Source of the DNA: Candidatus Eiseniibacteriota bacterium | Lineage (GTDB): Bacteria > Eisenbacteria > RBG-16-71-46 > CAIMUX01 | DNA: 64,000 nucleotides | Direction: 5' to 3' | Assembly (NCBI GenBank): GCA_016712505.1 | Contig: JADJQY010000042.1 | Coordinates: 269,809-333,808, forward strand | Shown here: in pieces, positions 7,519-44,325 of the stretch | How positions within the stretch are numbered: the stretch's first letter is position 1 | How the letters are laid out: each line of letters starts with the position of its first letter | Made by a program: the position numbers and the translations under genes | Notes under the pieces: generated by a model | The model's input: only the letters and a program-made list of their open reading frames with translations | Database searches by the model: none | Told to the model about the DNA's origin: nothing

Positions 7519-7822
7519 GGGATGCCTCCGTTTTGAACCAGTGGTGCAGCCCGGAGGATACCGCCCGCCGGGCGATTTGAGAATGCCTCGCAGCAGCCGC
7601 CCGGCCGCGCAACCCTGCCCCCCTCCAGGACCGGCCGTACCCCTGACCGTTCTGACCGAGATGTCTCAATTCCTCCGGATCAGCGCGTTTCCGGCATTTT
7701 GTATGGAACCAGTTCGGGGATAGAATCGAAGGCGCTGGTTTTCGCTTGGAGTCCCCCCCGGACGCAGATCCCAGTGCCTCCGGACGTTCTCAGCTCTCTC
7801 GAACCACAGCCAGGAGGCAACG

Positions 7823-22400: not shown

Positions 22401-22756
22401 AAGGTCTTCAGCGCCACCTCGCGTTGCAGCTCGGGGTCGCGCGCGAGATAGACCACCCCCATTCCCCCGCGTCCCAGCTCCCGGAGGATGGGATAGCGAC
22501 CCAGACGATCGGGAGGAGACCCCGGCTGGTCCGACGGGGGAAGCAGGAACCGGTTGCTCAGATCGTTCGCCCGGAGGAGCGACTCGACATCGGCTCGCAG
22601 GGCCGCGTCATGGCCGCAGGCAGCGGCCAGACGCTGGGAACGACCAGCCGCGGGACTCTCCGCCAGTTCGTGGAAGATCGCCTCTGCTCTCGGATCCAGC
22701 ATGATCGGACAAGTATACCCGTGCGGAGGCGTTCCCGGTCCGTACATCGAGGGCAT
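19406..22756 (-). CDS. Ser/Thr protein kinase fused to an NB-ARC/AAA (STAND) ATPase and C-terminal TPR repeats
   Basis: The N-terminus carries the ...AEAIFHELAES...DAALRADVESLL motif typical of bacterial STKs. Kinase motifs are GRGGMGVVYLA, HRDLKPQNV, DFGLA. A P-loop follows (TLVAMGGCGKTRLAIEVA), then about 10 TPR-like repeats. It lies 18 bp upstream of the ECF sigma. Confidence 0.85.
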   Translation of the reverse strand: MPSMYGPGTPPHGYTCPIMLDPRAEAIFHELAESPAAGRSQRLAAACGHDAALRADVESLLRANDLSNRFLLPPSDQPGSPPDRLGRYPILRELGRGGMGVVYLARDPELQREVALKTFPRHLVASAVRREQLRAEARSLASVSQPNVAQVFAFEDVTREDGTAIAFLAMEYVPGANLSERIGTEGLPFEHALDVARQIAAALEAAHARGIVHRDLKPQNVRLTPDGWVKVLDFGLATTSSLNAERGEETSLSGLCGTLGYMSPEQAGGEPIADRSDLWAFGCVLFECLSGSPAVAGGNGQALIEATRGGQIDWIRLPSLVPAAVRHFLARCLDLEPSKRPSASDARRFFEEALLRERARALHLVAGAGRIDGEPQAVHLPARLSTFIGRERALETALELLARHRLVTLVAMGGCGKTRLAIEVARRSADRFPQGVWFVDLTLLGEGDAIAPLVARTLGVRDAATDASPDAALLRALGSQRLLLVLDNCEHLLDAAADLVNAVVSHCPEVTILATSREPLDLIDEQVFDLPRFELPAPDADPALVREYEAVRLFESRARARRSDFVLDDAATMVVAEICRRLDGLPLAIELAASHARSHSSAEILDRVVTRPFEIGQVRGLAGRHQSLTGLIEWSYRLLEPVERLLFSRLSVFRGGWTAALAEEVCADVHLERWQVCDLLSRLVEQSLVEVVVVREDAASRYRFLETINAFARFQLDQVGEREELENRLLASAVNLVPPRVDDTPEDAEARLERVAEEYINVAAALEIALVRSDLGRATLLTGTLGRYWLTRGFWREGLAWLERVTALSPRDPAELPPAVQARDWIDVLLNLSRYHAQLDQHDRARSYTEAGVSLSRTTGDPKLSGRAAHMAGINALAGLRFADAHAYFEEAIRHFRAIGDRVSLVSSIGNIAMASLALGDTDGAILRNQEQIALARELGDRRGLATALNNLGLLNWATQRPSEALVHLNESIRIMRDLNDPLGAAICLNLIGEASIDLGDLSTARASLLEAVNTRLRLGQRVGVCSTLRSLSRLAETEGDPALAAELLGSVIQCRDRGEVVLQAAESAKIDARRDQLGARIGLELLAERLARGAARTLEDAVSWVTATMKPPARS

Positions 22757-26734: not shown

Positions 26735-28819
26735 GTGTCCAGTCTTGCCGATCGACTCAATCGTGCCCGGGCCGGAAGGTTTGTCGGTCGCGCGGCCGAA
26801 TTGGATCTGTTTCGGAGCGTTCTCCGGGCGGAAGACCTTCCGTTCGCCGTGATCCACATCCACGGCCCCGGGGGGATCGGAAAGAGCACCCTCCTCCGCG
26901 AGTACGGTCGCCTGGCGGCCGAAGAAGGCGCACCCGCGGTCTATCTGGACACCCAGACCTTCGAGCCGACGCCGGAGGCGTTCCACACCGCCCTGGCCCT
27001 CCACCTCGGCACGGCGCCCGGCACCGACCCGGTGGCCAACTTCGCGCAGCGGCCACGACCGCAGGTGCTGCTCCTCGATACCTACGAGGCGGCCCTCCCT
27101 CTCGACCATTGGCTGCGGGACAGCTTCTTCCCCCAGCTCCCCGCCGATGCCCTGGTGGTGATCGCCGGCCGCTTTCCTCCTCAGCCCGCCTGGCGGTCCG
27201 ACCCCGGGTGGCAGAGCCTCCTCCGGATCGTCGCGTTACGAAATCTCAGTCCCGAGGAAAGCCTCGACTACCTCGACCGGCGCGAGTTTCCGAGCGAGCA
27301 GCGCGGGTCAGTGGTCCAGTTTACCCACGGGCACCCCTTGGCCCTCTCTCTCGTGGCGGACTCCCACAGCAATCGGGCCGAAGGTGTCTTCCAACCCGAG
27401 GAGTCCCCCGACCTGATCAAATCTCTCCTCGAGCGGTTCGTGCAAAACGTCCCCGGACCGGGGCACCGCGCCGCGCTCGAAGCCTCGGCGATGGTCCGGA
27501 TGCTCAATGAGGCGCTGCTGGCCCATCTCCTGGCCCTGCCCGAAGCGCACGAGATCTTCGAGTGGCTCCGAGGTCTGTCCTTCATCGAATCGACGCCGCT
27601 CGGACTGATGCCCCACTCCCTGGCGCGCGAGGCGATCGCGAGCGATCTCCGTTGGCGCAATCGGGAGCGATTCGCCGAGCTTCATCGGCGCGCCCGCGAG
27701 TACTACGGGCAACGCCTCCAGGAAACCACCGGGTTGGAGCAGCAGATCGTCCTCTACGATTACATCTACCTCCACCGGGACAATCCGGTGGTCAAACCAG
27801 CCTTCGAGTTCAAGACCGCTTCCGCCTTGCGCTCCGAAACCGCCCGCACCGAGGACGCGCCCCAGCTTCGCGCGCTGGTCGAGCGCCACGAAGGAGCGGA
27901 GTCGGCGGGCTGGTTCGACTTCTGGTTCGAACGGCAACCGGAGCGCTTCCTGGTCGTCCGCGACGGCACCGAGACCCCCGCCGGGTTCCTCGCCTTGATC
28001 GCGCTTTCCCACGCCGACCCGGCCGACCTCCGCCGCGATCCGGCCACCCACGCGGCCTGGAGCTACCTCGAACGCACCACCCCCCTGCGCGAGGGAGAGT
28101 GCGCCACCCACTTTCGCTTCTGGATGTCCCGGGACGACTACCAGCAGGTGGGACCGGTGCAGAGCCACATCGTGGTGGCGATGGTGCAGCACTACTTCGT
28201 CACGCCCGGGCTGGCCTTCACCTTCGTGGCCACCGCCGATCCCGACTTCTGGGATCCGGCATTCTCGTACGCCGACATTGCCCGGATACCCGCCACCGAC
28301 TTCCAGGTCGGCGGACGGCATTACGGCGTGGCGGGCCACGACTGGCGCAAGGTTCCCCCGCTCGCCTGGCTCGCCCTCCTCGGGGAGCGCGAGCTCGGCG
28401 CGCCGGCCGCCGAGGAGGCGACCCTCCCTCCGACCGAGACCCTCCTGGTGCTCTCGCAGGACGAGTTCGAGGCCGCGGTGCGCGAGGCGCTCAAGGTCTA
28501 CACCAAGCCGGATCTGCTGAAGCAGAATCCGCTCCTGCGTACGCGCCTGGTCCAGGAACGAGCCGGCGCCACGAGCGGCAAGGCAGAGAGGGCCGATGCC
28601 TTGCGGGCGCTGTTCAAGGAGATCGCGCAGGCGATGAAGGGCTCACCGAAGGATCTGAAGCTGCTCCGGCCGGTGCACTACACCTACCTCGCTCCGCTCG
28701 ACACGCAAGAGCTGGCGGCTGATCGCCTGGGGCTCCCCTTCTCGACCTATCGTCGGCATCTGGCAGCGGGCATGAAACGAATCGCCGACCTCCTGTGGCA
28801 ACAGGAGATCGGCGACTAG
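26735..28819 (+). CDS. STAND/AAA_16-type ATPase transcriptional regulator with a C-terminal HTH (sigma-70 region-4/LuxR-like)
   Basis: N-terminal P-loop HGPGGIGKSTLLREY. It has a long helical middle region. The C-terminal HTH-like segment (ELAADRLGLPFSTYRRHLAAGMKRIADLL) suggests a MalT/AfsR-like regulator. Confidence 0.55.
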   Translation: MSSLADRLNRARAGRFVGRAAELDLFRSVLRAEDLPFAVIHIHGPGGIGKSTLLREYGRLAAEEGAPAVYLDTQTFEPTPEAFHTALALHLGTAPGTDPVANFAQRPRPQVLLLDTYEAALPLDHWLRDSFFPQLPADALVVIAGRFPPQPAWRSDPGWQSLLRIVALRNLSPEESLDYLDRREFPSEQRGSVVQFTHGHPLALSLVADSHSNRAEGVFQPEESPDLIKSLLERFVQNVPGPGHRAALEASAMVRMLNEALLAHLLALPEAHEIFEWLRGLSFIESTPLGLMPHSLAREAIASDLRWRNRERFAELHRRAREYYGQRLQETTGLEQQIVLYDYIYLHRDNPVVKPAFEFKTASALRSETARTEDAPQLRALVERHEGAESAGWFDFWFERQPERFLVVRDGTETPAGFLALIALSHADPADLRRDPATHAAWSYLERTTPLREGECATHFRFWMSRDDYQQVGPVQSHIVVAMVQHYFVTPGLAFTFVATADPDFWDPAFSYADIARIPATDFQVGGRHYGVAGHDWRKVPPLAWLALLGERELGAPAAEEATLPPTETLLVLSQDEFEAAVREALKVYTKPDLLKQNPLLRTRLVQERAGATSGKAERADALRALFKEIAQAMKGSPKDLKLLRPVHYTYLAPLDTQELAADRLGLPFSTYRRHLAAGMKRIADLLWQQEIGD

Positions 28820-31384: not shown

Positions 31385-33211
31385 CTAACGGCGGAGGGTC
31401 ATCTTCCGCGATTCGACGTTTTGATCGGTCGAAACGCGGCAGAAGTAGGTACCGGAGGGCATCCGGTTGCCGTTGTCATCGGCGCCGTCCCACATCACTT
31501 CGTAGCTACCGGCGGCCTGCTCGCCGTTGACCAGCGTCCGCACCGAACGCCCCGTGACGTCGATCACGTCGACCGAAACGGCGCCCTTGGCCGGGAGCGC
31601 GTAGCCGATCCGGGTCTGGGCCTGGAACGGATTCGGCGCGTTCTGCCCGAGCGAGAGCGAGGCGGGGAGGATCGACCCCAAGGCGCTCTGCGATGACGGA
31701 TCGTTGCTCGCCACCACCAAACTGCCATTCTGCAGGCTCAGGCTCATCGTGGTGGCGGGGCGCGGCGCCGTCGCGCGGCTGTGCAGGACGTCTTCGAATC
31801 CCTGGTGGGGGGAGGCGAGGTACGGGAAGCTCGACTTGAACGGCAGGTCGTTCTGGTCCACGCCATCGCCCAGCTTGTCGGCCAGCGGATCGAGCACCCA
31901 GTCCGGGTGGAACAGCTTGTAGGTCACGCCCGCCACCGCCTGGATCTCGATGTCGGTCACGTCGTCTTCCAGACGGCGCCCGTTCGGGAATCCGTCGAGA
32001 TTTCCGCCCAGCACTCCCATCCGGCTGAAGCTCTCCGCATCACGCGAAGTGGCCGGAATCGCGGTGTTGAGGCGAATCTGCTCGCTCGGGGTGACGTTCG
32101 GCGGCTGATTCAGCCCCGGCACGCCGGTGAGGAAGACCGCGACCAGATCGTCACGTCCGTGTAGCGGCACATTCAGTCCGTAGATCAGGTTGAGCAGCAC
32201 GGCCAGCTCCGGATCGGTCACGTAGCTCAGGAACTGCCCGTCGTGCTGGGGCTGGCTGTTGTTCCAGCGATCCTTGTTGCCGAGCGGGATCACCACTTCG
32301 TTCACCAACGGCATGCCCAGGCGCGAAACCTGCACCATCGGGCCGCCGGTCGAGGGCGGGGCGCCGTTTGGGTTCAAGATGGAGATCCGCTTCCGGCTCG
32401 CGGTGGCCCAGACACCGATGGTCGCGTCCGGATCGCTCGGATCGGTCGGCAGTTGCCCGTCCTTGGTCAGAAGCTGGGTCGGAATCTGCATGGCGATCGT
32501 GTGGGTGTTGAACCCGGCCACTCCGTCGATGCCTCCGCCGTTGTTCCCCGGGAGCACGCGAATGGTCAGAAGATCGAAGATTCCGCCCAGGTCGACGTAG
32601 AACGGATCGTCGCGCTGCCCCGCGAACAGCTTGATGCCGTTCGGCAGCGTGGTGATCGCCTGCTCGGCCAGTGACTCGTAGTTCGGGGTCGAGGAGGGGC
32701 CGATGTTCACCGGCGGGGTCGGCACGGTCTGGGCCAATCCGCTGACGAAGTTCCCGTTCTTCACCTGGCGAACGCTGTAGGTCTGGCGGATGTTCCAGTC
32801 GCTGTCGTTCAACGAGGTGATCGGGCCGGTGTTGTACAGAAACGTGTTGGGGTTCTGCACCGTCGTCTTGAAGCTGAACTGGTAGTCGATGTCGCTCTTG
32901 GCGTCGCCGTTGTTGTCGATGTGAATCTCGTAGAGCACATCGTCGCCGAACTTGTTGAAGTTCGGCCCACCGGCCGGCGCCTCGAGCGGGATGTAGTTCG
33001 CAACGATGGTCACGGTGTTCGGCGCATCCGGGCTCACGAATGCATAGGTATCGGTGTTGTCCGCCAGCGGGTCGTTCGAGACCAGCGGCGCTTCGCGGTG
33101 GCTCGAACCCCACGCGACCTGATTCGTCACGCCGATCGTGCCCAGTGCCGCAACCGCGGCCAAGGCGGCGAGGCCGATCTGGCCCGCCCTATTCCAGTTC
33201 CGGATCTGCAT
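31385..33211 (-). CDS. DUF4331-family secreted protein with a T9SS C-terminal sorting domain
   Basis: After the signal peptide the mature N-terminus is SSHREAPLVSNDPLADNTDTYAF, the hallmark of DUF4331. The C-terminus (LGQNAPNPFQAQTRIGYAL...SGTYFCRVST) is a T9SS CTD. I trimmed the start to MQIRNW. Confidence 0.7.
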   Translation of the reverse strand: MQIRNWNRAGQIGLAALAAVAALGTIGVTNQVAWGSSHREAPLVSNDPLADNTDTYAFVSPDAPNTVTIVANYIPLEAPAGGPNFNKFGDDVLYEIHIDNNGDAKSDIDYQFSFKTTVQNPNTFLYNTGPITSLNDSDWNIRQTYSVRQVKNGNFVSGLAQTVPTPPVNIGPSSTPNYESLAEQAITTLPNGIKLFAGQRDDPFYVDLGGIFDLLTIRVLPGNNGGGIDGVAGFNTHTIAMQIPTQLLTKDGQLPTDPSDPDATIGVWATASRKRISILNPNGAPPSTGGPMVQVSRLGMPLVNEVVIPLGNKDRWNNSQPQHDGQFLSYVTDPELAVLLNLIYGLNVPLHGRDDLVAVFLTGVPGLNQPPNVTPSEQIRLNTAIPATSRDAESFSRMGVLGGNLDGFPNGRRLEDDVTDIEIQAVAGVTYKLFHPDWVLDPLADKLGDGVDQNDLPFKSSFPYLASPHQGFEDVLHSRATAPRPATTMSLSLQNGSLVVASNDPSSQSALGSILPASLSLGQNAPNPFQAQTRIGYALPAKGAVSVDVIDVTGRSVRTLVNGEQAAGSYEVMWDGADDNGNRMPSGTYFCRVSTDQNVESRKMTLRR

Positions 33212-33552
33212 CGGGAAGTCTCCTTCTTCGGTCCTTAGCGTTCTCTCTGCCTTGAATCCTGTCCGCTCCAGGCGAGTCGGGATCCCGGAAGACCACCGGG
33301 CGATCCTCCGGGTCCCCACCGCCTATCCGCGCTACCGGTCCCCAAGACCACGGTGCGGGATCGTTCGGACAAGCAAGAGAATCGGGCGAATCGCTGGCCA
33401 CGCGACACGCCAGCGACTGCTCAGTCGCTGCTCAGGGAGAGAACCAGGGACGGCGGGAGAGGGACGTGAGTCACCGCACTAACTAATTACGGAATAATCC
33501 GTTATGCGCTTCGGCCGCGGCTCCCGAAATCGGACGCGAGCATCTTGGCTGT

Positions 33553-34840: not shown

Positions 34841-35152
34841 GCTGCTCCATTCCCTGCCGTGGTCAGCGGCTCCAACCGTTCTTCCCTCGCCACCTCCGAA
34901 GCCAATTCCGGACCGGCGCGACACTTCACCCGGATCATGCCCCCGATCGGGATTCCGGACAAGAGCCCCGCGGAGGCCCCGCGCCCGACCGTTTCGCTCG
35001 TGGGTTGGCGGAGGGTGGCATCGATTCGGCACGGAAAGAAGCAGCGCGCCGACCGGGTGGGTATCGGCGCGCTGCGAGAGAGGACGGGTCGAGAGGGGCC
35101 GTAACCCCTCAGGGAACATCGATGCCTGATCAGATACCGATAGAGGACAAGG

Positions 35153-35950
35153 TCATTCGAGAATCAACACGGACTCCGCACGCCGCTCTCCGCCGGCGGA
35201 GAGCTGGAGGTAGTAGATCCCCCCGGCCAGACCCGAGAGGTCGAGGTCGACGTGGTGCACCCCCGAATCGAACCCCCCGCGCGCGAGCGCGCGGACGAAG
35301 CGGCCGCTGGGGTCGTACAGCGAGAGATCGACTCCCGCCTCGCTGGGGAGCGAGAAACGCACGCTGGCCCGGTTCCGCGCTGGATTGGGCATCGGCGCGG
35401 ACAGTGCCAGCGTCGCCCCCCGCCGGGGCTCGACGGACGTCGTGCCGACGGTCCGGACCGGGATCACGGCGGAGGTCCAGTCGGCATGATCCGCGTGCCA
35501 GATCTTGATCTGGAGGGTGCTCACTCCCGGATTCACTCCGGTCAGGTGGAACGCCCAGTCGTCGAGCTGTGAGATGGTGGCAATCACCGGGTTCGGAGCA
35601 TTCCAGCGGAGCGAGTAGATCGGGTCGGTCGGCGTGAACTCGACCCCGTTCTCGTCGAGAAAGCTCACATCGATTCGACCGCTGGAAACGGTCGCGGGGA
35701 GATCGAACTTGCCGTTCACGACCCCCTGCCAGACCGTAACGACCGCGGTGTTCTGGAGACGCAACACCATGCCATCGGGTGAAAGGTGCTGCGCCCTCGC
35801 CGGCGGTGCTGCCAGGAACGCAGAGGTCAGTCCCAGGCCCAGGGCCAGACTCCGCAAGAGACTCGGCGCGGCAGATTCGGGGGGTCGGTTCCGGACCATG
35901 CCGGCGTGTTGCCGGAGCACCCGGCCCAGTTTCGCTTGGTACCGATTCAT
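35153..35950 (-). CDS. Secreted protein with one copy of a novel Big-like domain bearing a W-H-x-D-H-x-D motif, plus a T9SS C-terminal sorting domain
   Basis: Its single domain (...VTVWQGVVNG...IDVSFLDENG...IKIWHADHADWTSAVIPVRTV) is homologous to the two domains of the lipoprotein at 39679..40956. The C-terminus (LSAPMPNPARNRASVRFSL...GIYYLQLSAGG) is a T9SS CTD. Confidence 0.6.
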   Translation of the reverse strand: MNRYQAKLGRVLRQHAGMVRNRPPESAAPSLLRSLALGLGLTSAFLAAPPARAQHLSPDGMVLRLQNTAVVTVWQGVVNGKFDLPATVSSGRIDVSFLDENGVEFTPTDPIYSLRWNAPNPVIATISQLDDWAFHLTGVNPGVSTLQIKIWHADHADWTSAVIPVRTVGTTSVEPRRGATLALSAPMPNPARNRASVRFSLPSEAGVDLSLYDPSGRFVRALARGGFDSGVHHVDLDLSGLAGGIYYLQLSAGGERRAESVLILE

Positions 35951-36031
35951 CGCTTCCTCCCGGGATGCGCGCTCCCGCGGCGAGGAGACGGCCGGCGCCG
36001 TCTCCTCTCGCCGTCAGGACGCGGGTCGTGG

Positions 36032-37057
36032 TTAGCGGTAGGTGGCCTTGATTCCGCCCCAGCTTCGCGACTCGGTGGCCACCGGTCCGCAGGGGTTCGG
36101 ATCGCAGCTCGTGCCGTCGCCCACGTAGGTGCCGCCTTCCTTGTTCACGCAGTGATCCTCGAACGAGATCTCGCACCCCTCGCCCGGAACGCAGCAGGCG
36201 CCGGCCGGGTCGCAGGGATACGGATCGCACGTGGTACCGTCGCCGAGATACTCCGCTCCGTGGTCGGTGCACTCGCTGGGCGCCACGACCGAGCAGCCGG
36301 TCTCCGGGCTACAGCACGCACCTTGCGGCTGCGGACAGGGGTTCGGATCGCAAACCGATCCCTCTCCCTGGAACGCACCGCCGTTGGCGGCACAGAGGTC
36401 GGCGAGGAGTACCGCGCACGAGCCGTCAGAGAAGCAGCAGGCACCCTCGACCGGACCCGAAGTCGGGCAGGGGGTGGAGCCCGGCGCGTCGAAGCCGAGG
36501 GTGCCGAACCCAGCGATCGCATCGAGGTTTGCCGGAACGCTGTCGTCGGCGAACTGGCCGCCCTGCGTCGGGTGGGCGGTCAGAGCGAAGAGGGCGGGAT
36601 CCGGCGCGTAGTAGTTGTAACCGGCGAACCAGTAGGCCTCGACCAGTTGGCTCGTCCGGGCCGTGTTCCAGGTGATCGCGGTCCCTTCGCCCGAGTTCGG
36701 CCAGCCGCCGGTGGTCAGCTCGAAGTCGGCGCAGCTCCCCTGCGCCACCAGGCTGATCGACGCGGTGTAACTCACGCCGAAGGTAAGCCCGGCCACGCGC
36801 GGATTCGCGCCAGAGTCGAAAGCGGCGACGACGTAGAACAGCGTCGGGTCGGCGCCCGTCACGAAGTTGACCGCCTGAGCGCAATCGACCAACCCACCCT
36901 GGCCGCTCCCAACCCCCTGGCCGCAGTAGCTCGACTGGTCCGGGGTGTAGGCGATCGAAGGATTGGCGTGGAGGAACAAGGTGCCGCCTGCGTTCGGCCC
37001 GGCCTGCGCCGTGGCGGCACAGGTCAGAGCCAGAGCTGACAATATCCACTTCTGCAT
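36032..37057 (-). CDS. Secreted protein with C-terminal cysteine-rich repeats
   Basis: Signal peptide from MQKWILSALALTCAATAQA. There are three ~40-aa repeats of the pattern GACCx(4-5)CxxxxxxxCxxxGGxYxGxGxxCDPNPC. No T9SS CTD. Confidence 0.55.
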   Translation of the reverse strand: MQKWILSALALTCAATAQAGPNAGGTLFLHANPSIAYTPDQSSYCGQGVGSGQGGLVDCAQAVNFVTGADPTLFYVVAAFDSGANPRVAGLTFGVSYTASISLVAQGSCADFELTTGGWPNSGEGTAITWNTARTSQLVEAYWFAGYNYYAPDPALFALTAHPTQGGQFADDSVPANLDAIAGFGTLGFDAPGSTPCPTSGPVEGACCFSDGSCAVLLADLCAANGGAFQGEGSVCDPNPCPQPQGACCSPETGCSVVAPSECTDHGAEYLGDGTTCDPYPCDPAGACCVPGEGCEISFEDHCVNKEGGTYVGDGTSCDPNPCGPVATESRSWGGIKATYR

Positions 37058-37119
37058 GGAGTACTCCTGGGTGGGGGGTATTGAGCTCCCCGGAGGGGGC
37101 AACCCGCCGGGCGAGAGGA

Positions 37120-37150
37120 TCTATCGATAACGATACAACGTTATCATTTT
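37120..37150. promoter_or_regulatory. Candidate Fur-box-like inverted repeat in the promoter of the Cys-rich protein gene
   Basis: ATCGATAACGATACAACGTTATCAT contains a perfect GATAACG/CGTTATC inverted repeat. It sits within an AT-rich patch ~70 bp upstream of the start at 37057 and resembles the site upstream of fur at 41108..41142. Confidence 0.35.
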
Positions 37151-37426
37151 TGTTTCCTCGGTTCCTCCCAAAATTCGACATGCCTCGGCAGTTCGCGTGG
37201 ACGATTCAAGGCCGTTATGGCGCATGGCCAGACTGGGGCGAAGCAGCGAACCCACCGGCTACAGCACGCGTTCTGAGTCGAATCCGCGCGGCAATCCTGA
37301 CCAGTCAGGCGATCGGCCGGTGCAACTTCGAGCGACGCGCGCCCAGAGCTGACGCAGAGTCAGGCATCGGCGCTGCCGCCGGCTCGGGCAAACGGCGAGA
37401 GATGCACGAATCTTCGCGCCACAGCC

Positions 37427-39682
37427 TCAGAAATACGTGCGGTAGCTGAGGCGAAGGTCGCGGCCGGCCTCCGGGAGGATCGACCGAATGCGCGAAAGGT
37501 GGTTGCGATACTCCCGGTCCGTCACGTTGTCGACCGAAAGGGAGACCTCATGCAGCGCGTGACGCCGCGGAAGCGCGAGCGCGACGCGGGCGTCGAAGAC
37601 CAGGTAGCCGGCGGTGGGATCCTCGAATTCCCCGGTTCGCGACTGGCGGGCGGCTCCCCGGGCAGTGAGGCCGTAACGCCACTCCCCGTGGCGAAGATCC
37701 GCTCGGAGCAGACCGTGGAGCGGCGGCACCGCAGGGAGCGGGCGATCTCCCTCCGGCAGGCTTCCTTCGACCCAGCTCAGGTTGCCCTCCCAGTCGACCC
37801 ACAGGTGGGCTGCACCGCTCAGCTCCAACCCGGCCAGCCGGGCATCGCGCCCGACGAAGCGGTAGCGCGGCAGCGCCCCATCCTCTCCCGCGCCATACTC
37901 GATCTCACCCGTGTCGCGCGCATAGGTGTAGCGCTCGAACTGGTTCCAGAACCCAGAGAAGCGGAGTTCACCGACCGCGCCCCGGTAGTTCAATCCGAGA
38001 TCGACCCCGAGTCCGGTCTCGGGATCGAGGTCGGCGTTTCCGACCTCGTAAGAGTACGCGGCAAGATGCGGCCCTTCACTGAACAGTTCCTCCAGCGCCG
38101 GGGGGCTGAAGGAGCGTTGAGCGAGCAACTCGGTGCTCCAGGTGGCGGAGAGGGAGCGGGACAGGCGCAACGAGGCGGATACACCGCTGAAGTCACGTGC
38201 TCGGACCACCCCCGCCTTCGTCGTATCCCCCTCCTCGGGACGAACGGCGCGAAGATCGACCCGGCCTCCGACCCCCACCTCCCAGGGACCGATCGTCGCC
38301 TCATGCACCGTGAAGAGCGCCGCCGAACGCTCGGTGGTGGGCGGAATGAAACTCAGGCAACCGGTCGCGAAGTCGCGGTGCTCGATCCAGAGACCGACGA
38401 GGTGAGGCGCCGTACGCGAGAAGCGAGCCACGGCGGAGGCGTGGTACGAAACGACCCCGAATGCCACGCCGCAGACGTCGTTCGACTCGAGCTCTTCGTG
38501 GTAGTAACGCGAATAGCTCCCCTTCAGATCGAGGCGCGAGACCGGTCCTTCGCGCGGGGAGAGTCGCACCGCCGCTTCGAGAAAGCGCCGATCGAGTTCG
38601 ATATCGACGCCGTGAGCGTGGCCACCGAGGAATCCGCCCGGAATGCCGTAGTCGGATCGGTACAGACCACCGGCGATCCCGACCGTCGATCGCTCGCCCA
38701 CCTGGGAGATCCCGAGAGAAGCGCCACGGGTTCGGATCTCGGTGTTGCGCAGTTCGCCGCCAGGGGTTTGGGTATCGCGGGCCTCGCGCCAGGACCCATC
38801 GCCGCGAAGGGCGATGCTGCCGAACGGGGCGATGCCGTCGAGCGGGGCACGAAAGGCCAGGGACCCCGATCCTCCGGTATTCACCGACTGGCCGGTCAGC
38901 CCCAGATTTCCATTCAGGCGGCTCGGAAGCGAGAGCGGCACCGTCTCGTGCTCGACGTTCACGACTCCGCCGAGGACGTTCGATCCGTAGAGGAGAGCAC
39001 GCGGACCGCGGATGACCTCGATTCCCTCCGCGGTCATCGGCTCGATGGTGACCGCATGATCCGCAGAGCTGGCCGAGAGATCACCCGTCCGTTCGCCGTC
39101 CTCGAGCACGAGAAGGCGGTTGCCGCCCAGACCACGCAACACCGGGCGAGACGGAGCCGGACCCATGCTCCGGGTGGCCAGCCCCGGCTCATTCTCCATC
39201 GACTCCGCGATGGTGCCGGCCAACCGCTCCCGGAGCGCCTCGCCCGAGAGGGAGACCGCAGACCGTCCGCGCATCTCCGGATCCGCCCCGCGCGCCCCCT
39301 CGACCAGCACAGGATCGAGACTCAGATTGACCGGTTCGAGAACCAACGCGAGTCGAAGGGTGTCGTGTGCAGCAAGTTCGAACGGGATCATCCGCTCGGC
39401 ATACCCGATCCGCCCGACCCAGAGCGTGTCGGGACCGGCGGCCAGGTCCTCGAACGCGAAGGCGCCCGCCTCGTCGGTCGTACCGGGAATCCCGTTCCGC
39501 GCCAGATGGAGGTGGGCATCGATCACCGGAGCCCCGCTCACCGCATCGTGAATCGCTCCCCGCAGCGCAGCCCCGATACCCGGGGTGGGCTGCGCCGCCA
39601 CCGAGACGGTGGCGGCGGCGAACAACGACCAGATGGCGACAGACGGCGCCGATCGAGCGAGATACGTGGCGCGAACCTTCAC
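37427..39682 (-). CDS. TonB-dependent outer-membrane receptor (with an N-terminal CarboxypepD_reg-like domain)
   Basis: It has a signal peptide and a plug domain whose TonB-box region resembles TonB-dependent receptors. The barrel has a long beta-strand pattern. The terminal aromatic residue (…SYRTYF) is typical of OM barrels. Confidence 0.85.
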   Translation of the reverse strand: MKVRATYLARSAPSVAIWSLFAAATVSVAAQPTPGIGAALRGAIHDAVSGAPVIDAHLHLARNGIPGTTDEAGAFAFEDLAAGPDTLWVGRIGYAERMIPFELAAHDTLRLALVLEPVNLSLDPVLVEGARGADPEMRGRSAVSLSGEALRERLAGTIAESMENEPGLATRSMGPAPSRPVLRGLGGNRLLVLEDGERTGDLSASSADHAVTIEPMTAEGIEVIRGPRALLYGSNVLGGVVNVEHETVPLSLPSRLNGNLGLTGQSVNTGGSGSLAFRAPLDGIAPFGSIALRGDGSWREARDTQTPGGELRNTEIRTRGASLGISQVGERSTVGIAGGLYRSDYGIPGGFLGGHAHGVDIELDRRFLEAAVRLSPREGPVSRLDLKGSYSRYYHEELESNDVCGVAFGVVSYHASAVARFSRTAPHLVGLWIEHRDFATGCLSFIPPTTERSAALFTVHEATIGPWEVGVGGRVDLRAVRPEEGDTTKAGVVRARDFSGVSASLRLSRSLSATWSTELLAQRSFSPPALEELFSEGPHLAAYSYEVGNADLDPETGLGVDLGLNYRGAVGELRFSGFWNQFERYTYARDTGEIEYGAGEDGALPRYRFVGRDARLAGLELSGAAHLWVDWEGNLSWVEGSLPEGDRPLPAVPPLHGLLRADLRHGEWRYGLTARGAARQSRTGEFEDPTAGYLVFDARVALALPRRHALHEVSLSVDNVTDREYRNHLSRIRSILPEAGRDLRLSYRTYF

Positions 39683-40956
39683 CCGATGATCTCGACCGGG
39701 ATCGGAGGAGTGACGTAGGCAATCGCGTCGTTCCGCAGCACAGTGATCCGCAAGTGAGTCCGCCCCGCAGTGACGCCAACCAGGTGAAATAGCGTGATCT
39801 CACCCCAATGTTCGGGGTGGTTCACGGTGCCACCCATGCAACCGTTCTCGAACTCGAAGAGCAAGCTGTACTCAGCATCGTCGTAATCCTCACCGCGGCA
39901 ATCCTCGGTCAGGCGCTGGAAGTTGAACAGGTCGGTGGTGTCCCCCACGGCTGCGGTCAGGAGATTCACCGCCGGTGGGCGGCTACCGCAGGTCTCGGAG
40001 AAGAGCACTCCGTCGCGTCCCGTGGCCACCCACACCCCGTTCAGCTTCAAGACGAAGTCGGCCGAACCGGCGTCACCAGCGTTCGGCACGTGGACGGTCA
40101 GCGGGATCGGGCCTGAGGTGTAGTCGGAATGGCCCTCGTGAAGAATCTTCCAGCGCACGGTGGTGGTTCCGGCGACCTTTCCACGAATGAGCACGCGCCA
40201 GGGGTCGAGCGGATCGACTTCCACCTCGACGAGCGATGGATCTGTGATCTCCCACCCCAGGGTGTAGGGCTCGCCTTCGGGGGCGAACAGAAGGCGATCC
40301 GGCGAAACGAAGCGCACGTCGATGCTGTCGTTCACTCCGCCCACCGGCGCGAGGAGGCGACCGGTGGCCACCTCCGGGTGGGCCAGGTCATAGTTCCAGG
40401 TCGCGAGCCAGGTACACTTCTGGGCCAGCACCAGTCCCTCGGCCTCGATCTCCCCCTCGTCCACGACGTGAAGATCGATCGGGAGCGAGGTGAAGTCGGC
40501 GTGATCCCCGTGCCAGACCCGGATGCGGAAGGTGGTCTTGCCGTCGGCCAGCCCACGCACGGTGAACGCCCACCTGTCCCCATCGACAGCGGAGATCTCG
40601 GCGATGGTCGGGTCCGCCACCTCGAAGCGCAGAGCGTGGTCCACACAAGCGGCGGCCGGAACGGTCTCGAGGCTGTCGGCATCCAGGAAGCGCACCCGGA
40701 TCGGCTCCGAGGTCTCCTCGTGGTGGGCGTGCACCTCGCCGGAGGTCGCTCCCTGCCACTGGGTCACGATCACTTCGTCACTTTCCCGCAAGAGCAGTCC
40801 GTCGGCATCGAGATGCTCGCAAGCCGGTTCGCCATCGTCGGCAGGGTTGTCGTCACCGCACCCGGTGAGTCCGCCCCCGAGGAGCAGGGCGGCGACCAGC
40901 ATCAGGCACCCCACCGGGGTCAGACCCGGAAACCAATCGCGGACAGAGCGTTGCAT
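39679..40956 (-). CDS. Lipoprotein with two copies of the novel Big-like W-H-x-D-H-x-D domain
   Basis: Lipobox LTGC. Two homologous ~120-aa domains end IRVWHGDHADFTSLPIDLHVV and WKILHEGHSDYTSGPIPLTVHV. It overlaps the TonB-dependent receptor gene by 4 bp, so they are likely co-transcribed. Confidence 0.65.
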   Translation of the reverse strand: MQRSVRDWFPGLTPVGCLMLVAALLLGGGLTGCGDDNPADDGEPACEHLDADGLLLRESDEVIVTQWQGATSGEVHAHHEETSEPIRVRFLDADSLETVPAAACVDHALRFEVADPTIAEISAVDGDRWAFTVRGLADGKTTFRIRVWHGDHADFTSLPIDLHVVDEGEIEAEGLVLAQKCTWLATWNYDLAHPEVATGRLLAPVGGVNDSIDVRFVSPDRLLFAPEGEPYTLGWEITDPSLVEVEVDPLDPWRVLIRGKVAGTTTVRWKILHEGHSDYTSGPIPLTVHVPNAGDAGSADFVLKLNGVWVATGRDGVLFSETCGSRPPAVNLLTAAVGDTTDLFNFQRLTEDCRGEDYDDAEYSLLFEFENGCMGGTVNHPEHWGEITLFHLVGVTAGRTHLRITVLRNDAIAYVTPPIPVEIIG

Positions 40957-41107
40957 TCTGGGCTCCTTGTTCTCTCCCTGCCGGCCGGGCGTGCAATCGC
41001 TTCGTGCGAGGGAGAGCGCGTTATCACCAACGCATCATATGGTTAGCGCAACAGATAGGACTCCCGAGCAGGCGCGTTCTTGACTAGAGTCACGCGAGCG
41101 CAAGTTC

Positions 41108-41142
41108 GTGATAGTAACGATAAACAAGTATCAATTATCGTC
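41108..41142. promoter_or_regulatory. Candidate Fur box in the divergent fur / lipoprotein-TonB receptor promoter region
   Basis: GTGATAGTAACGATAAACAAGTATCAATTATCGTC has GATAA/TTATC half-sites (ACGATAA...TTATCGT inverted repeat). It lies in a conspicuous AT-rich island ~40 bp upstream of the fur ATG. Confidence 0.45.
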
Positions 41143-41179
41143 AAGAGGGAAGTGCGTTCCCTCGGGAAACAAGGGACCC

Positions 41180-41560
41180 ATGCAGCGGAACACGCGACAG
41201 CGTCAGGCGATCCAGAAGGCCTTCTCGCACGCGGGGAGACCACTGGGACCGCGGGAAGTCCTGGAAGCGGCCGTGACGGTGGTTCCCGGACTAGGGATTG
41301 CGACGGTCTACCGGACGATCAAGGAACTGGTCGACGCCGGAGAGATCGTGCCGGTGGAGCTGCCGGGCGAGAACACGCGCTACGAGGTATCGGGCAAGCA
41401 CCACCACCACCACTTCCACTGCAACAAGTGCAGCGGGGTGTTCGAGGTGGAGGTCTGCAACTTCGACGCGACCGTTCCGAAGGGATTCCGGCTCGAGGAT
41501 CACGAGGTGATCCTCTATGGCCTCTGTGACAACTGCGCACCAGGGAGGAAGACGAAATGA
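41180..41560 (+). CDS. fur: Fur-family metalloregulator (Fur/Zur-like)
   Basis: Winged-helix N-terminus (RNTRQRQAIQKAF...). His-rich metal site GKHHHHHFHC. Two CxxC pairs (CNKC...CDNC). I trimmed the start to MQRNTRQ. Confidence 0.8.
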   Translation: MQRNTRQRQAIQKAFSHAGRPLGPREVLEAAVTVVPGLGIATVYRTIKELVDAGEIVPVELPGENTRYEVSGKHHHHHFHCNKCSGVFEVEVCNFDATVPKGFRLEDHEVILYGLCDNCAPGRKTK

Positions 41561-43101
41561 GCGACGCGCGCCGGGACTCGGGACGAAACCACCCTCGCCT
41601 CGAGCCCCGCCGGCTCCCGGCGCGATCGCTCAAGTCTGCCCTGCTCCTCACGTCCTCGATCGCCGCAGTGACGCTCTTCGCGCTGCTCCCGGCATCCGCG
41701 GCACGGGCCCAGTTCGCGACCGCAACGCCCGCGGTGAATTCCTTGGTCGCCGCCATCGCCGCCACTCCTGCCGAGGGGGACCTCCTCGCCGCCGGCCCGA
41801 TGCCGGCCGGGGCGGCGCTCCGGTCGGCCACGATCTGGCTCCAGACGAAGCAGGCGTGCAGCGTGGAGCTGCGCTACGGCATCGACGGATCCGGCAGCGC
41901 TGCGGGCGAAACCGGCACGGGAGGCGCTTCGGCTCCCATGATCGCGGCCCCGGCGCAGGCCACGACCCTCGCCGGGGAGCACATCGCGGTCTTCGAGCTG
42001 GATGATCTCGAGCCGGGGACCACCTACCGCTACGAGCTCCGGCTCGATGGCGCCCTGGTCGAAAGGCCCTATCCGTTCACCTTCAAGACGCAGCCGCTCT
42101 GGGAATGGCGCACCGATCCGCCCACCGTGACGGTCATGATCGGCTCCTGTTTCTACGTCAACGAGGAGCAGTACGACCGCCCGGGGAAGCCGTACGGCAG
42201 CGAGCACGAGATTCTCGGGCCGATGGCCGCGGTCCGTCCGGATTTGATGATCTGGCTGGGGGACAACACCTATCTGAGAGAAGTCGACTACTTCTCCCCC
42301 GGCGGAATCCGCGGGCGCTATCGCCACACGCGGAGCTTCCCCGGATTGCAGCCGTTTCTCGCCTCGACCCACCACTACGCCACCTGGGACGATCACGACT
42401 TCGGCCCGAACGACAGCGACGGCAGCTACCCCCTGAAGGCGCAGGCGCTCGAGACCTTCAGCCGGTACTGGCCCGCTCCGAACCACGGAGTCGAGGGAGC
42501 ACCCGGAGTCTTCCAGCGCTTCCGCTGGGCCGATATCGACTTCTTCCTCCTCGATGATCGCTACCACCGGAAGCCGAACCGGTGGCCGGCCGGTCCGGAC
42601 AAGCGAATGCTGGGCCTGGCGCAGATGAACTGGCTGAAGGAGGGGCTTGTCTCCTCTGACGCGACCTGGAAGGTGGTCGCGCTGGGCAACCAGGTTCTGA
42701 ATGACGTGGGGCGCTTCGAGACCTTCGGCCGCTACCCGGAGGAACGGAAGGAACTGCTCGACTGGATCGTCGGGCAGAAGATCGACGGCGTCGTCTTCAT
42801 CTCCGGGGATCGCCACCGGAGCGAGCTGACCCGCGTCGAACCGCCCGGCGGCTACCCGCTATACGACTTCACCAGCTCCTCGATCACCGCCGGGATCGCC
42901 AACCTGAAGGAAGACGACGCGGAGTGGAGTCTCCCCAACCGGGTCGAGGGAACCCTGCTCCTGGAGCACAGCTTCGGCCTGATGCGGTTTTCCGGGCCGA
43001 GAAAAGAACGGGTGGTGACCTTTTCCGCCATGGGGAAGGACGGGACGCTCCGGTGGGAGCGGTCGGTGGCGCGCACGGAATTGTCATCGGCCAAAAACTA
43101 G
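41557..43101 (+). CDS. phoD: Alkaline phosphatase D (PhoD-like metallophosphatase), secreted
   Basis: N-terminal signal/Tat-like region. PhoD motifs are ATWDDHDFGPND, FFLLDDRYHR and ISGDRHRSEL. Its ATG overlaps the fur stop (ATGA). Confidence 0.85.
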   Translation: MSDARRDSGRNHPRLEPRRLPARSLKSALLLTSSIAAVTLFALLPASAARAQFATATPAVNSLVAAIAATPAEGDLLAAGPMPAGAALRSATIWLQTKQACSVELRYGIDGSGSAAGETGTGGASAPMIAAPAQATTLAGEHIAVFELDDLEPGTTYRYELRLDGALVERPYPFTFKTQPLWEWRTDPPTVTVMIGSCFYVNEEQYDRPGKPYGSEHEILGPMAAVRPDLMIWLGDNTYLREVDYFSPGGIRGRYRHTRSFPGLQPFLASTHHYATWDDHDFGPNDSDGSYPLKAQALETFSRYWPAPNHGVEGAPGVFQRFRWADIDFFLLDDRYHRKPNRWPAGPDKRMLGLAQMNWLKEGLVSSDATWKVVALGNQVLNDVGRFETFGRYPEERKELLDWIVGQKIDGVVFISGDRHRSELTRVEPPGGYPLYDFTSSSITAGIANLKEDDAEWSLPNRVEGTLLLEHSFGLMRFSGPRKERVVTFSAMGKDGTLRWERSVARTELSSAKN

Positions 43102-43362: not shown

Positions 43363-44325
43363 ATGCTTCGGATCGGTGACCCTGCACCTTCATTCCGTCT
43401 TGCCTCCACCTCCGGACGGGAGGTGTCGCTGGAAGATTTCCGCGGACACAAGATCGTTCGCTACTTCTATCCGAAGGATGAGACGTCCGGCTGCACCAAG
43501 GAAGCGTGCGACTTCCGGGACAACATGCATCGGCTGAGCGATGCCGGAGCGGTCGTGCTCGGCGTCTCTCCCGATTCGATCGATTCGCATCACGGCTTCC
43601 GGGCCAATCATGACCTTCCCTTCGACCTTCTGAGCGACCCTGATCATGAGGTGGCGAAGGACTACGGTGCCTATGGCGAGAAGATCAGCTACGGCACCCC
43701 CACGCTGGGAATCATCCGCTCGACGATCGTGATCGACGAGCTCGGGTATGTGGACGCAATCTGGTCGCCGGTCACGGTCGACGGACACGCGGAGCAGGTG
43801 ATCGACTTCCTCTACGGACGCACGTCGTCCCCGGGGGAGGCGGCCATGGACTCCACGCCCCGCAAGTCGCCCGCCCCTGCGGCGAAGAAGGCCACCAGCC
43901 CGAAGAAGACCGCTGCTCCGAAGAAAGCGCCGGCTGCCAAGCCGGCCCCCGCTTCGAAGCAGGGTGCTTCACCCAAGAAGTCCGCCTCGGCGGGCGCGAA
44001 GCCGGCTGCCAAGAAGTCCGTGGCGGGCGGTGCGAAGGCCGGTTCGAAGAAGAAGGCGGCGAAGAAGGCCGTCAAGAAGGCAGCGCGGAAGGCCACCAAG
44101 ACGGCGGCCAGGAAGGCAGCCACGAAAACCAGCAAGGAGGCAGCGAAGATGATGGCGAAGAAGGCGGGCAAGAAGGCCGCGAAGAAGGCGACCAAGAAGG
44201 CCACCAAGAAGACCGCCAAGAAGGCGACCAAGAAGGTGACGAAGAAGGCCGCCAAGAAGGCCGCCAAGAAGGCGCCCAAGAAGGCCGCCAAGAAGACCGC
44301 GAAGAAGGCCACCAAGAAGGCCTAA
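43363..44325 (+). CDS. bcp: Bcp/PrxQ-type thiol peroxidase fused to a C-terminal histone-H1-like Lys/Ala-rich tail
   Basis: The N-terminal ~150 aa form a peroxiredoxin (YPKDETSGCTKEACDFRD). The last ~170 aa are AKKA/KKAT repeats (12-bp AAGAAGGCSRCC tandem repeats in the DNA), as in H1/Hc1/AlgP tails. There is a strong GAGGAGG RBS. Confidence 0.8.
   Translation: MLRIGDPAPSFRLASTSGREVSLEDFRGHKIVRYFYPKDETSGCTKEACDFRDNMHRLSDAGAVVLGVSPDSIDSHHGFRANHDLPFDLLSDPDHEVAKDYGAYGEKISYGTPTLGIIRSTIVIDELGYVDAIWSPVTVDGHAEQVIDFLYGRTSSPGEAAMDSTPRKSPAPAAKKATSPKKTAAPKKAPAAKPAPASKQGASPKKSASAGAKPAAKKSVAGGAKAGSKKKAAKKAVKKAARKATKTAARKAATKTSKEAAKMMAKKAGKKAAKKATKKATKKTAKKATKKVTKKAAKKAAKKAPKKAAKKTAKKATKKA

Follow-up and report, generated by a model that had tools for sequence, protein, structure and literature searches.

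The window analyzed here, a stretch of 64,000 nucleotides from the Candidatus Eiseniibacteriota assembly GCA_016712505.1 (contig JADJQY010000042.1), contains a locus in which a lipoprotein built from copies of a new immunoglobulin (Ig)-like domain is encoded immediately ahead of a TonB-dependent receptor and divergently from a Fur-family regulator. A second pair of genes on the same strand encodes a Cys-rich secreted protein and a secreted protein of 265 residues that carries a single copy of the same domain. The stop of the lipoprotein gene and the start of the receptor gene overlap by 4 nt (39679-39682), and the receptor is translationally coupled to the lipoprotein gene; the gap between the receptor gene and the Cys-rich protein gene is given as 280 bp. 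The lipoprotein is 100% identical to protein IT349_16430 of a Candidatus Eisenbacteria metagenome-assembled genome (MAG). From the features listed in Table 1 and their conservation elsewhere, we argue that this is probably a zinc-responsive uptake locus in which surface or secreted domains would capture the metal for the receptor.

Table 1. Features of the locus in the window and, in the last two rows, associated genes in related loci (T9SS, type IX secretion system; HMM, hidden Markov model)
Feature	Location	Strand	Description
Lipoprotein gene	39679..40956	-	425 residues, lipobox, three copies of the new Ig-like domain
Domain copy 1, metal-type	40465..40815	-	Residues 48-164; HMM independent E-value 1.7e-43
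Domain copy 2, metal-type	40093..40452	-	Residues 169-288; HMM independent E-value 2.4e-37
Domain copy 3, degenerate	39688..40056	-	Residues 301-423; HMM independent E-value 7.7e-22
TonB-dependent receptor gene	37427..39682	-	751 residues, ZnuD type
Cys-rich secreted protein gene	36032..37060	-	ATG 37060
Secreted single-domain paralogue gene	35153..35950	-	265 residues, signal peptide, T9SS tail
Single domain of the 265-residue protein, metal-type	35453-35788	-	Residues 55-166; motif HADHADW at 35477-35497
T9SS type A C-terminal domain of the 265-residue protein	35177-35389	-	TIGR04183, 27.9 bits vs cut-off 23
Fur-family regulator gene	41180..41560	+	126 residues from ATG 41180; divergent from lipoprotein gene
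PhoD-like phosphatase gene	41557..43101	+	DUF7800 and PhoD domains
Operator-like array	41109..41141		GATAGTAACGATAAACAAGTATCAATTATCGT; divergent promoter region; core GATAAACAAGTATC at 41119-41132
Second operator-like site	37126..37145		GATAACGATACAACGTTATC; core 37132-37145; GATAACG/CGTTATC
Small HDHDHEHDH/CxxC paralogues	L020, 6429-6743 and 12746-13072; L012, 6165-6578; L001, 7325-7732		
MerC-family genes	L012, 9860-10315; L015-L034, around 7250-7990; L001, 6857-7258		

An initial annotation, made from the sequence alone, had proposed a repeated domain in the products of 35153-35950 and 39679-40956, and all of the peptides it quoted are present. In BLASTP, the 265-residue protein matched the lipoprotein at copy 1 with E = 9e-25, at copy 2 with 4e-12 and at a degenerate, C-terminal copy 3 with 3e-5; the three copies counted earlier are thus real, and the total missed this fourth. 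The domain is about 115 residues long and all-beta. Copy 1 starts with H48-L-D-A-D-G and carries H149-G-D-H152-A-D154-F (40492-40512) near its end, and copy 2 starts with E169-I-E-A-E-G and carries H273-E-G-H276-S-D278-Y at 40120-40140. Copy 3 matches profile positions 27-115 only, without the N-terminal His segment and with RNDAIAY in place of the HxxHxD motif; a degenerate C-terminal copy of this kind recurs in all multi-domain homologues. The WQG and FLD blocks also reported as shared are present, in some copies only.

The HMM found 52 domain copies in 16 close homologues, and when 1.84 billion cluster representatives were searched with a profile, 1481 proteins matched at E ≤ 1e-3, of which 684 also did so at E ≤ 1e-10; the majority are 140-700 residues long and have one to five copies. 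The lipoprotein reached the cut-off of no Pfam or NCBIfam family, and none of 10 homologues from the profile search that were scanned against Pfam passed any family cut-off. Big_2 (PF02368) scored 13.5 bits on the domain, below its gathering score of 22.8, and T2SS-T3SS_pil_N scored 23.9 bits summed over the whole lipoprotein without any single significant stretch; the latter gave 16-21 bits, under its cut-off, in 4 of the 10 other homologues scanned and no match in the rest. Both weak signals, neither of which exceeds its cut-off, come from the domain's second half. A precomputed Pfam label on one homologue (PF26181.1 on P0013) was not reproduced by the Pfam scan, even at E ≤ 10. An AlphaFold2 model of copy 1, built from a 33-copy alignment, is all-beta with 11 strands (predicted local distance difference test score, pLDDT, 96; predicted template-modeling score, pTM, 0.88), and Foldseek against the PDB returned only Ig-like matches for it (E 3e-5 to 1e-3, TM 0.47-0.62), its neighbors being the Nup210 Ig domain, domains of the S-layer protein SbsC and the lambda gpV Big_2 domain. 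On this model the domain is an uncatalogued Ig-like sandwich, in agreement with the earlier view of it as new and with the Big_2-like fold that had been expected; it has the fold in common with Big_2 and other bacterial Ig-like domains while missing the Pfam Big_2 gathering score.

The signature of the domain was derived from 385 copies in 159 proteins. The motif that homologues conserve is H-x-x-H-x-D-[FY]-x-[ST], so that the H-x-D-H-x-D form first proposed has to be given up: its first Asp is not kept (HEGH, HDGH). Metal-type copies (221 of the 385) have H100, H103 and D, E or H at position 105 (91% D), followed by [FY]-x-[ST], and 79% of them start with an aligned H (73%) or E (6%) within H-x-[DE]-A-[DE]-G. 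The 164 degenerate copies have no His at the motif positions, and 93% of these are without the N-terminal segment entirely. Motif and segment co-occur with a Fisher p = 2e-49, a value uncorrected for phylogeny and, as the copies are related, descriptive and no real probability. The Asp of the F-L-D-x-D block (profile position 47) is found in 71% of metal-type copies versus 21% of degenerate ones. In the model, H106 ends one strand, with H109 and D111 on the next strand of the same hairpin (model numbering), and we infer that the N-terminal His and the HxxHxD residues form one site. The linkers and loops of homologues from Poribacteria, Fibrobacteraceae and others contain HEHEHE or HDHDH runs, which are typical of proteins that handle divalent cations, and neither Cys nor Met ligands of the Cu(I) type occur in the signature. 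Judged by these sequence features, the domain probably binds metal.

Two kinds of export signal accompany the domain. The lipobox of the lipoprotein, recognized at the outset together with the overlap of its gene with the receptor gene, reads L-T-G-C33 and is followed by G-D-D-N; a lipobox is found in 85 of 158 representatives, with post-Cys residues [SG]-D-[DN]-[DP] that resemble SDDDD, the surface-lipoprotein export signal of Bacteroides fragilis (PMC5080379). T9SS/FlgD_ig-type tails are carried by another 35 of the 158 (~22%). T9SS secretion of the 265-residue protein, likewise part of the initial annotation, is borne out by TIGR04183 and agrees with the label that NCBI gives to an identical MAG protein ('T9SS type A sorting domain-containing protein'); Por_Secre_tail (Pfam PF18962; E = 6.8e-6) comes to 26.7 bits, just below its cut-off of 27. 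The existence of two independent export routes, a lipid anchor and a T9SS tail, argues that the domain would act outside the outer membrane.

The receptor consists of CarboxypepD_reg, Plug (PF07715, E = 1.5e-16) and barrel (PF00593, E = 1.8e-26) domains. Its best NCBIfam model is ZnuD (NF038289, E = 1.3e-47), with TonB-hemin and hemoglobin-receptor models matching at ~1e-30; the NF038289 score is below cut-off and the receptor is therefore called ZnuD-like here, not ZnuD. ZnuD (4rdr) is also its closest solved relative, with 3.9e-29 for the single sequence and 1.6e-74 for a profile of 12 orthologues, and the latter profile scored 254.6 bits with ZnuD (zinc), 103.8 with PhuR (heme), 92.5 with OprC (copper) and 85.8 with ShuA. 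High-affinity zinc ligands of ZnuD are Asp-99 and His-100 together with Glu-340 and His-499, whereas heme receptors use only two His (PMC4557270). The equivalent residues of the window receptor, D208-H209 (39056-39061), E397 (38492-38494) and H539 (38066-38068), are invariant in all 12 receptor orthologues; a 14-residue offset between chain index and published numbering gave the right residue type at all four ZnuD positions. ZnuD chain residues 255-318 (loop 3, ~62 residues) have no counterpart, profile positions 336-347 covering GGFLGGHAHGVD only. Loop 3 of ZnuD bears His/Asp clusters thought to fish for zinc. With the pocket kept and loop 3 gone, a division of labor is therefore suggested in which the barrel would provide the pocket and a separate domain protein the capture.

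Comparison with ZnuD of Neisseria meningitidis (PDB 4RDR/4RDT; PMC4557270) thus shows plug, barrel and the four ligands of the buried site in common, and both receptors sit under a Fur-family regulator. The window receptor differs in its identity of only ~25-30%, in an added N-terminal CarboxypepD_reg domain, in the missing loop-3 clusters HSHEYDDCHAD and HDDDNAHAHTH and in being paired with a multi-domain lipoprotein. A targeted literature search, of incomplete coverage and hence a weak negative, found no description of a lipoprotein partner of ZnuD, of the new domain or of the pairing.

The pairing recurs widely. A receptor orthologue adjoins the domain gene in 5 of 5 loci fetched by exact protein look-up, and in 31 loci of GTDB species representatives it is directly adjacent in 15 and within the fetched stretch in 24; loci found by profile search came from a first-copy-only alignment, which biases them toward the HGDHADFT subtype. 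The receptor orthologues beside domain genes matched with E-values of 1e-78 to 1e-195. Groups with the pair are Desulfocapsa, Krumholzibacteriia, Fibrobacteraceae, KSB1, Poribacteria, Gemmatimonadota, Rhodothermales and one Pelagibacteraceae-labelled MAG. Matches to 'DUF4331' that phmmer gave in many of these loci were discarded, as they are due to the shared FlgD_ig/T9SS tail and not to DUF4331.

In Poribacteria the cluster comprises a small HDHDH/CxxC membrane protein, the domain protein, a MerC-like protein, ABC_tran and MacB/FtsX components, then a His-rich protein, DUF3299 (once or twice), a second small membrane protein and the receptor. In locus L001 a Fur-family gene stands at the head of the same ABC/FtsX/His-rich/DUF3299 set. 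Known modules that match this set are ZrgABCDE in Vibrio and PA4063-PA4066 in Pseudomonas, with which it has a split MacB-type ATP-binding cassette (ABC) transporter, DUF3299 and a small His-rich protein in common; both modules are Zur-controlled and induced by zinc limitation (PMC9817125, PMC11481552). They include low-affinity zinc-binding accessory proteins of the periplasm or extracytoplasmic space (PMC8561739). The window itself has no Zrg-like module, and neither ZrgA (DUF2796) nor PA4063 (ferredoxin-like fold) has any structural relation to the Ig-like domain.

Two further kinds of gene were noted in these related loci. Membrane-anchored paralogues of ~100-130 residues, with an HDHDHEHDH run and a CxxC motif and without a Pfam family, flank the domain and receptor genes in Poribacteria and L001 and may belong to the uptake island as an additional component. 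Beside the domain or receptor gene, Poribacteria and L001 also conserve an inner-membrane protein of the MerC family, a candidate for the pathway's inner-membrane step; the window has no MerC-family gene near the module.

The divergent gene had been annotated as fur-type, and its product has a FUR domain (PF01475, E = 3e-19) with an HHHHH-F-H-C-x-x-C motif and a C-terminal C-x-x-C; the structural Cys4 site is present as C-N-K-C and C-D-N-C. Its PDB neighbors are Campylobacter jejuni Fur (8e-14), Streptomyces coelicolor Zur (1.8e-11) and Mycobacterium tuberculosis Zur (1e-10), and its best NCBIfam model, PerR, is below cut-off. Since these similarities are indecisive, we judged the regulator by the gene neighborhoods of its orthologues, in loci taken from metagenomes. 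An identical regulator (L037, 100% identity) belongs to the same locus as that in the window. The orthologue in L044 (57% identity) is divergent from a Zrg-like ABC and FtsX pair, and those in L057, L059, L060 and L062 (~49%) from a similarly arranged operon, which in L060, the only one of the four scanned with Pfam, contains ZnuA (PF01297, 6.6e-28) and an ABC-3 permease. L053 (51%) has its regulator divergent from a COG0523-type GTPase with GFLGAGKT and GCICC motifs (best PDB match YjiA, 1.7e-9), and the regulator of L001 (43%) heads the Zrg-like ABC gene set. COG0523 is a classical marker of Zur regulons. The repeated wiring of regulator orthologues to zinc-uptake genes therefore makes Zur the most economical reading; Zur is a likelier identity for the regulator than Fur, and zinc the likelier metal.

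Both operator-like sites described earlier exist: the first is an inverted repeat ACGATAA/TTATCGT at 41117-41141, and the second lies ~70 nt upstream of the ATG of the Cys-rich protein gene. The Fur-box-like character of the site beside the regulator was rightly recognized, but the regulator most likely starts at ATG 41180 and not at 41108, where its open reading frame opens; the box is therefore upstream of the gene and not inside it. The core GATA[AC]-N4-[GT]TATC has exactly two matches in the 64 kb, where chance alone would give 0.03, and these fall in the only two intergenic regions ahead of the genes of interest. The same core is found upstream of the orthologous lipoprotein gene in L002-L004 and of the regulator orthologue in L053, where the region between the regulator and COG0523 genes carries the box TGATAATATATTATCA. 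Sigma-70-like -35 and -10 elements for the lipoprotein operon (minus strand, 41144-41117; the promoter rules of the phylum may differ) overlap the box, an arrangement that would fit a repressor occluding the promoter. Rfam models scanned over 34900-41700 at E ≤ 1 gave no match, and the leader of the lipoprotein operon (~160 nt) contains no known riboswitch.

The classical Fur box has the consensus GATAAT GATAAT C ATTATC; the site in the window reads GATAAC GATACA AC GTTATC and resembles a Fur box with one extra spacer base. The hairpin at 37126-37145 was also considered as a terminator for the plus strand, on which its T-run lies, and rejected: no plus-strand gene ends there, the hairpin has 3 G-C pairs only and its core matches that of the other box. 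In L001 (6761-6774) and the L057-L066 group, a TAATGC...GCATTA-type palindrome near the regulator gene takes the place of GATA-N6-TATC, and operator divergence within the regulator subfamily is therefore suggested. The palindromes noted for these distant orthologues are AATGCGAATGCATT and TAATGCAAACGCATTCGCATTAGCA (L001; upstream of the regulator in L057, L060, L064 and L066).

We read the locus, with a probability of roughly 0.6, as a Zur-type system induced by zinc limitation in which surface and secreted domains capture zinc for a ZnuD-type receptor. In zinc-replete cells the Zur-type repressor (41180-41560) would bind two TGATAA-N4-[GT]TATCA-like boxes, one overlapping the promoters from which its own gene and the lipoprotein/receptor operon diverge and the other ahead of the gene pair for the Cys-rich and T9SS proteins. 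When zinc is scarce, three products would appear: the ZnuD-type receptor, with its buried Asp-His-Glu-His pocket kept and the loop 3 'fishing' segment absent; the lipoprotein, with two metal-type copies and one degenerate copy; and the single-domain paralogue, secreted or T9SS-anchored. Each metal-type domain would hold one divalent metal ion through its N-terminal His or Glu together with the two His and the Asp of H-x-x-H-x-D, this motif being placed at a C-terminal beta-hairpin. The domains would catch zinc at the cell surface and hand it over to the receptor, doing in trans what loop 3 of ZnuD does in cis. What the analysis shows is homology, the pattern of conservation, the class of fold, synteny, the statistics of the operator and the surroundings of regulator orthologues; that the domains bind metal, which metal it is, that they are exposed at the surface and pass it to the receptor, and that the regulator acts as a repressor are steps that we infer. 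What had been suggested at first, a metal or heme accessory for TonB-dependent uptake, keeps its receptor link, His/Asp signature and operators; iron or heme as the cargo is disfavored, the receptor being ZnuD-like.

Several observations weigh against the zinc scheme. The NF038289 score of the receptor is 162.8 bits, far under the equivalog cut-off of 950, and the top PDB and NCBIfam scores of the regulator go to Fur and PerR, not Zur. We take the sensing-site residues of S. coelicolor Zur to be D65, C79, H84 and H86; in the PDB alignment the regulator has Val at the presumed Asp and Cys positions, with the His run present, and the N-terminal-domain His that presumably belongs to the Fur/PerR regulatory site is also missing in the alignment with C. 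jejuni Fur. The operator is nearer the classical Fur box, with its GATAAT repeats, than published Zur boxes, and no GATA-N6-TATC box was found upstream of the module in L005-L008, L013 and L017, loci of more distant lineages. The MerC-like genes and CxxC membrane proteins of related loci could point to another metal, and ZnuA-family binding proteins and PA4063-66 handle Mn and Co too. The four proposed ligands are placed close together on the strength of sequence positions and co-occurrence only. Finally, the lipoprotein export signal has been demonstrated in Bacteroidota only, and the lipoprotein could face the periplasm.

The same architecture might instead work on another cargo, either a different divalent metal (Cu, Ni, Co or Mn) or a metal bound to a metallophore, in place of free zinc, which we regard as unlikely. 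The copper receptor OprC is the third-best structural relative of the receptor, and MerC-like transporters and membrane proteins with HDHDH and CxxC accompany the module in Poribacteria and L001; a link between PA4063-66 and cobalt-pyochelin traffic has been made, zinc is not the only metal that a His3-Asp site suits, and PF01297 spans Mn and Zn binding proteins. Yet OprC reaches only about one third of the ZnuD score, the ZnuD ligand set is wholly conserved, a COG0523 gene adjoins a regulator orthologue, and Cu(I)-type Cys or Met ligands are absent from the signature. To an iron or heme system we give a low probability; here the regulator would be a true Fur and the lipoprotein hemophore-like or iron-binding, analogous to HmuY/HmuR. 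Such a system would explain the Fur-box-like boxes, C. jejuni Fur as the top PDB match of the regulator and the ~1e-30 matches to TonB-hemin and hemoglobin-receptor models, and ZnuD is itself structurally related to heme receptors. A heme or iron system is opposed by the receptor profile, which gives ZnuD 254.6 bits but PhuR only 103.8 and ShuA 85.8, and by retention in the receptor family of the equivalents of Asp-99 and Glu-340 as well, where heme receptors clamp their ligand with two His. Neither HmuY nor any other heme-binding family was matched in Pfam or NCBIfam (E ≤ 0.1 or E ≤ 10), regulator orthologues adjoin ZnuA, COG0523 and Zrg-like genes and not iron genes, and inserts rich in His, Asp and Glu fit free cations, not heme.

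The direction of transfer could also be reversed, the lipoprotein being a periplasmic metallochaperone that takes zinc from the receptor in the manner of ZinT, ZrgA or PA4063. Low-affinity periplasmic zinc chaperones are known from zinc-uptake operons (PMC8561739), and the rules of lipoprotein sorting in Eisenbacteria may differ from those of Bacteroidota. We nevertheless consider a chaperone of this sort improbable, given the T9SS/FlgD_ig tails for export across the outer membrane on ~22% of the representatives and on the paralogue in the window, and the match of the post-Cys residues to the surface-export signal of Bacteroidota. Very improbable, too, is a reading of the domain as a common Big-like repeat that serves structure or adhesion, whose His and Asp residues have no role in metal binding and whose linkage to the receptor is incidental. 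The sub-threshold Big_2 and T2SS-T3SS_pil_N matches would suit such a repeat, as would structural neighbors that are only S-layer, nucleoporin and phage-tail Ig domains; but H100 and H103 are defining columns that are lost together with the N-terminal His segment, synteny with one orthologue group of receptors extends across many phyla, His-rich inserts are present, and an operator is held in common with a metal-regulator gene.

The proposed capture of zinc by surface domains has parallels in known systems. In streptococci, the Pht proteins (PhtD/PhtA), acting with AdcAII, are made of repeated surface units with a short His motif on beta-strands and an upstream acidic ligand (H83, H86, H88 and E63 in the PhtD zinc site), are encoded next to a zinc-uptake component and have a proposed scavenge-and-hand-over role like the one suggested here (PMC3842936). 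The resemblance is one of functional analogy only: there is no detectable sequence homology and no Pfam match of the new domain to the Strep_his_triad family, the Pht motif is HxxHxH and not HxxHxD, the Pht repeat is a short three-strand element and not a 115-residue Ig-like sandwich, and the Gram-positive host passes the metal to an ABC binding protein and not to a TonB-dependent receptor. The lipoprotein-then-receptor order, the acidic export-like signal and the CarboxypepD_reg extension are shared with HmuY-HmuR, BtuG-BtuB and SusD-SusC of Bacteroidota, which follow the same logic of a surface protein catching a scarce ligand for a barrel. The lipoprotein of the window is unrelated in fold to HmuY, SusD or BtuG (no family match), its cargo would be a bare metal ion, and part of the new family uses T9SS tails where the Bacteroidota pairs use lipid anchors. 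YezP and TseZ, effectors of type VI secretion systems (T6SS), are secreted proteinaceous zincophores used with outer-membrane receptors. They too combine a secreted zinc-binding protein with a TonB-dependent receptor, as proposed here, but leave by the T6SS instead of a T9SS-type route or lipid anchor, and the multi-domain family of the window is a different one.

More broadly, and tentatively, at somewhat less than even odds, the H...HxxHxD Ig-like proteins may form a large uncatalogued family of surface or secreted 'zincophores' that are obligate partners of loop-3-less ZnuD-type receptors across many phyla. The spread claimed for this pair takes in Eisenbacteria, Krumholzibacteria, Fibrobacterota, KSB1, Poribacteria, Gemmatimonadota, Rhodothermales and some Desulfobacterota. 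If the proposal is correct, Gram-negative bacteria would have in this pair their equivalent of the streptococcal Pht/AdcAII zinc relay, and no protein partner of a ZnuD-type transporter would have been described before the domain protein. Passage of zinc across the outer membrane of Gram-negative bacteria is known mainly from a few pathogens, via ZnuD or metallophore receptors. The present finding points elsewhere, to a receptor that keeps the zinc pocket while capture is apparently outsourced to a modular Ig-like protein, in an arrangement widespread among uncultured phyla from the environment and from sponges. For ~1500 cluster representatives without database annotation it proposes a function that can be tested, and it offers a candidate Zur box for Eisenbacteria. 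It also makes a structural prediction, namely that the N-terminus and C-terminal hairpin of an Ig fold carry a His/His/His(Glu)/Asp site.

The gene downstream of the regulator encodes the PhoD-like phosphatase, whose start overlaps the regulator stop by 4 nt and which is therefore probably on the same transcript as the putative Zur. A PhoD orthologue is also found near the lipoprotein/receptor pair in L002-L004 and L037. Whether the phosphatase is part of the system is uncertain, and the notion that it is a zinc-sparing substitute for a Zn-dependent phosphatase is speculation. The Cys-rich protein has an N-terminal cohesin-like domain, three repeats of the form GACC...C...C...C-DP-x-PC and a conserved C-terminal SWGxIKxxYR, without a Pfam or NCBIfam match. 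Its AlphaFold2 model (pLDDT 90) shows a predicted cohesin-like sandwich followed by the three Cys-rich repeats, and its best Foldseek matches are cohesins (6kgf_C, 5.8e-6, TM 0.61 on target). The family has at least 747 homologues, nearly all in Candidatus Eisenbacteria, with several paralogues within the same MAG and no database annotation. It is tied to the system only by its position behind the second box and is not found in related loci; its gene may be co-transcribed with 35153-35950, and a role in tethering the T9SS-secreted domain protein is pure speculation.

Elsewhere in the window, a full-length DUF4331 protein (31385-33319, minus strand; E = 7.5e-155) ends in a FlgD_ig/T9SS-type tail, as do a subtilase (7823-10765) and a beta-propeller protein (16569-18200); with several proteins carrying the same tail, this export signal is evidently used heavily by the genome. 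At 43363-44325 (plus strand) an AhpC/TSA (Bcp-like) peroxiredoxin is fused to a C-terminal repeat tail of ~170 residues rich in Lys, Ala and Pro (KKAAKKATKK...), which recalls histone H1-like or AlgP-like tails. Three large STAND-like signaling proteins are encoded at 19406-22756 (minus strand; Ser/Thr kinase, NB-ARC and TPR), 26735-28819 (plus strand; AAA_16/NB-ARC) and 54762-58097 (minus strand; adenylate/guanylate cyclase and AAA_16), and the gene at 11665-14298 (minus strand) encodes a probable Type IIG restriction-modification enzyme with an Eco57I/MmeI-type methylase and a TaqI_C specificity domain.

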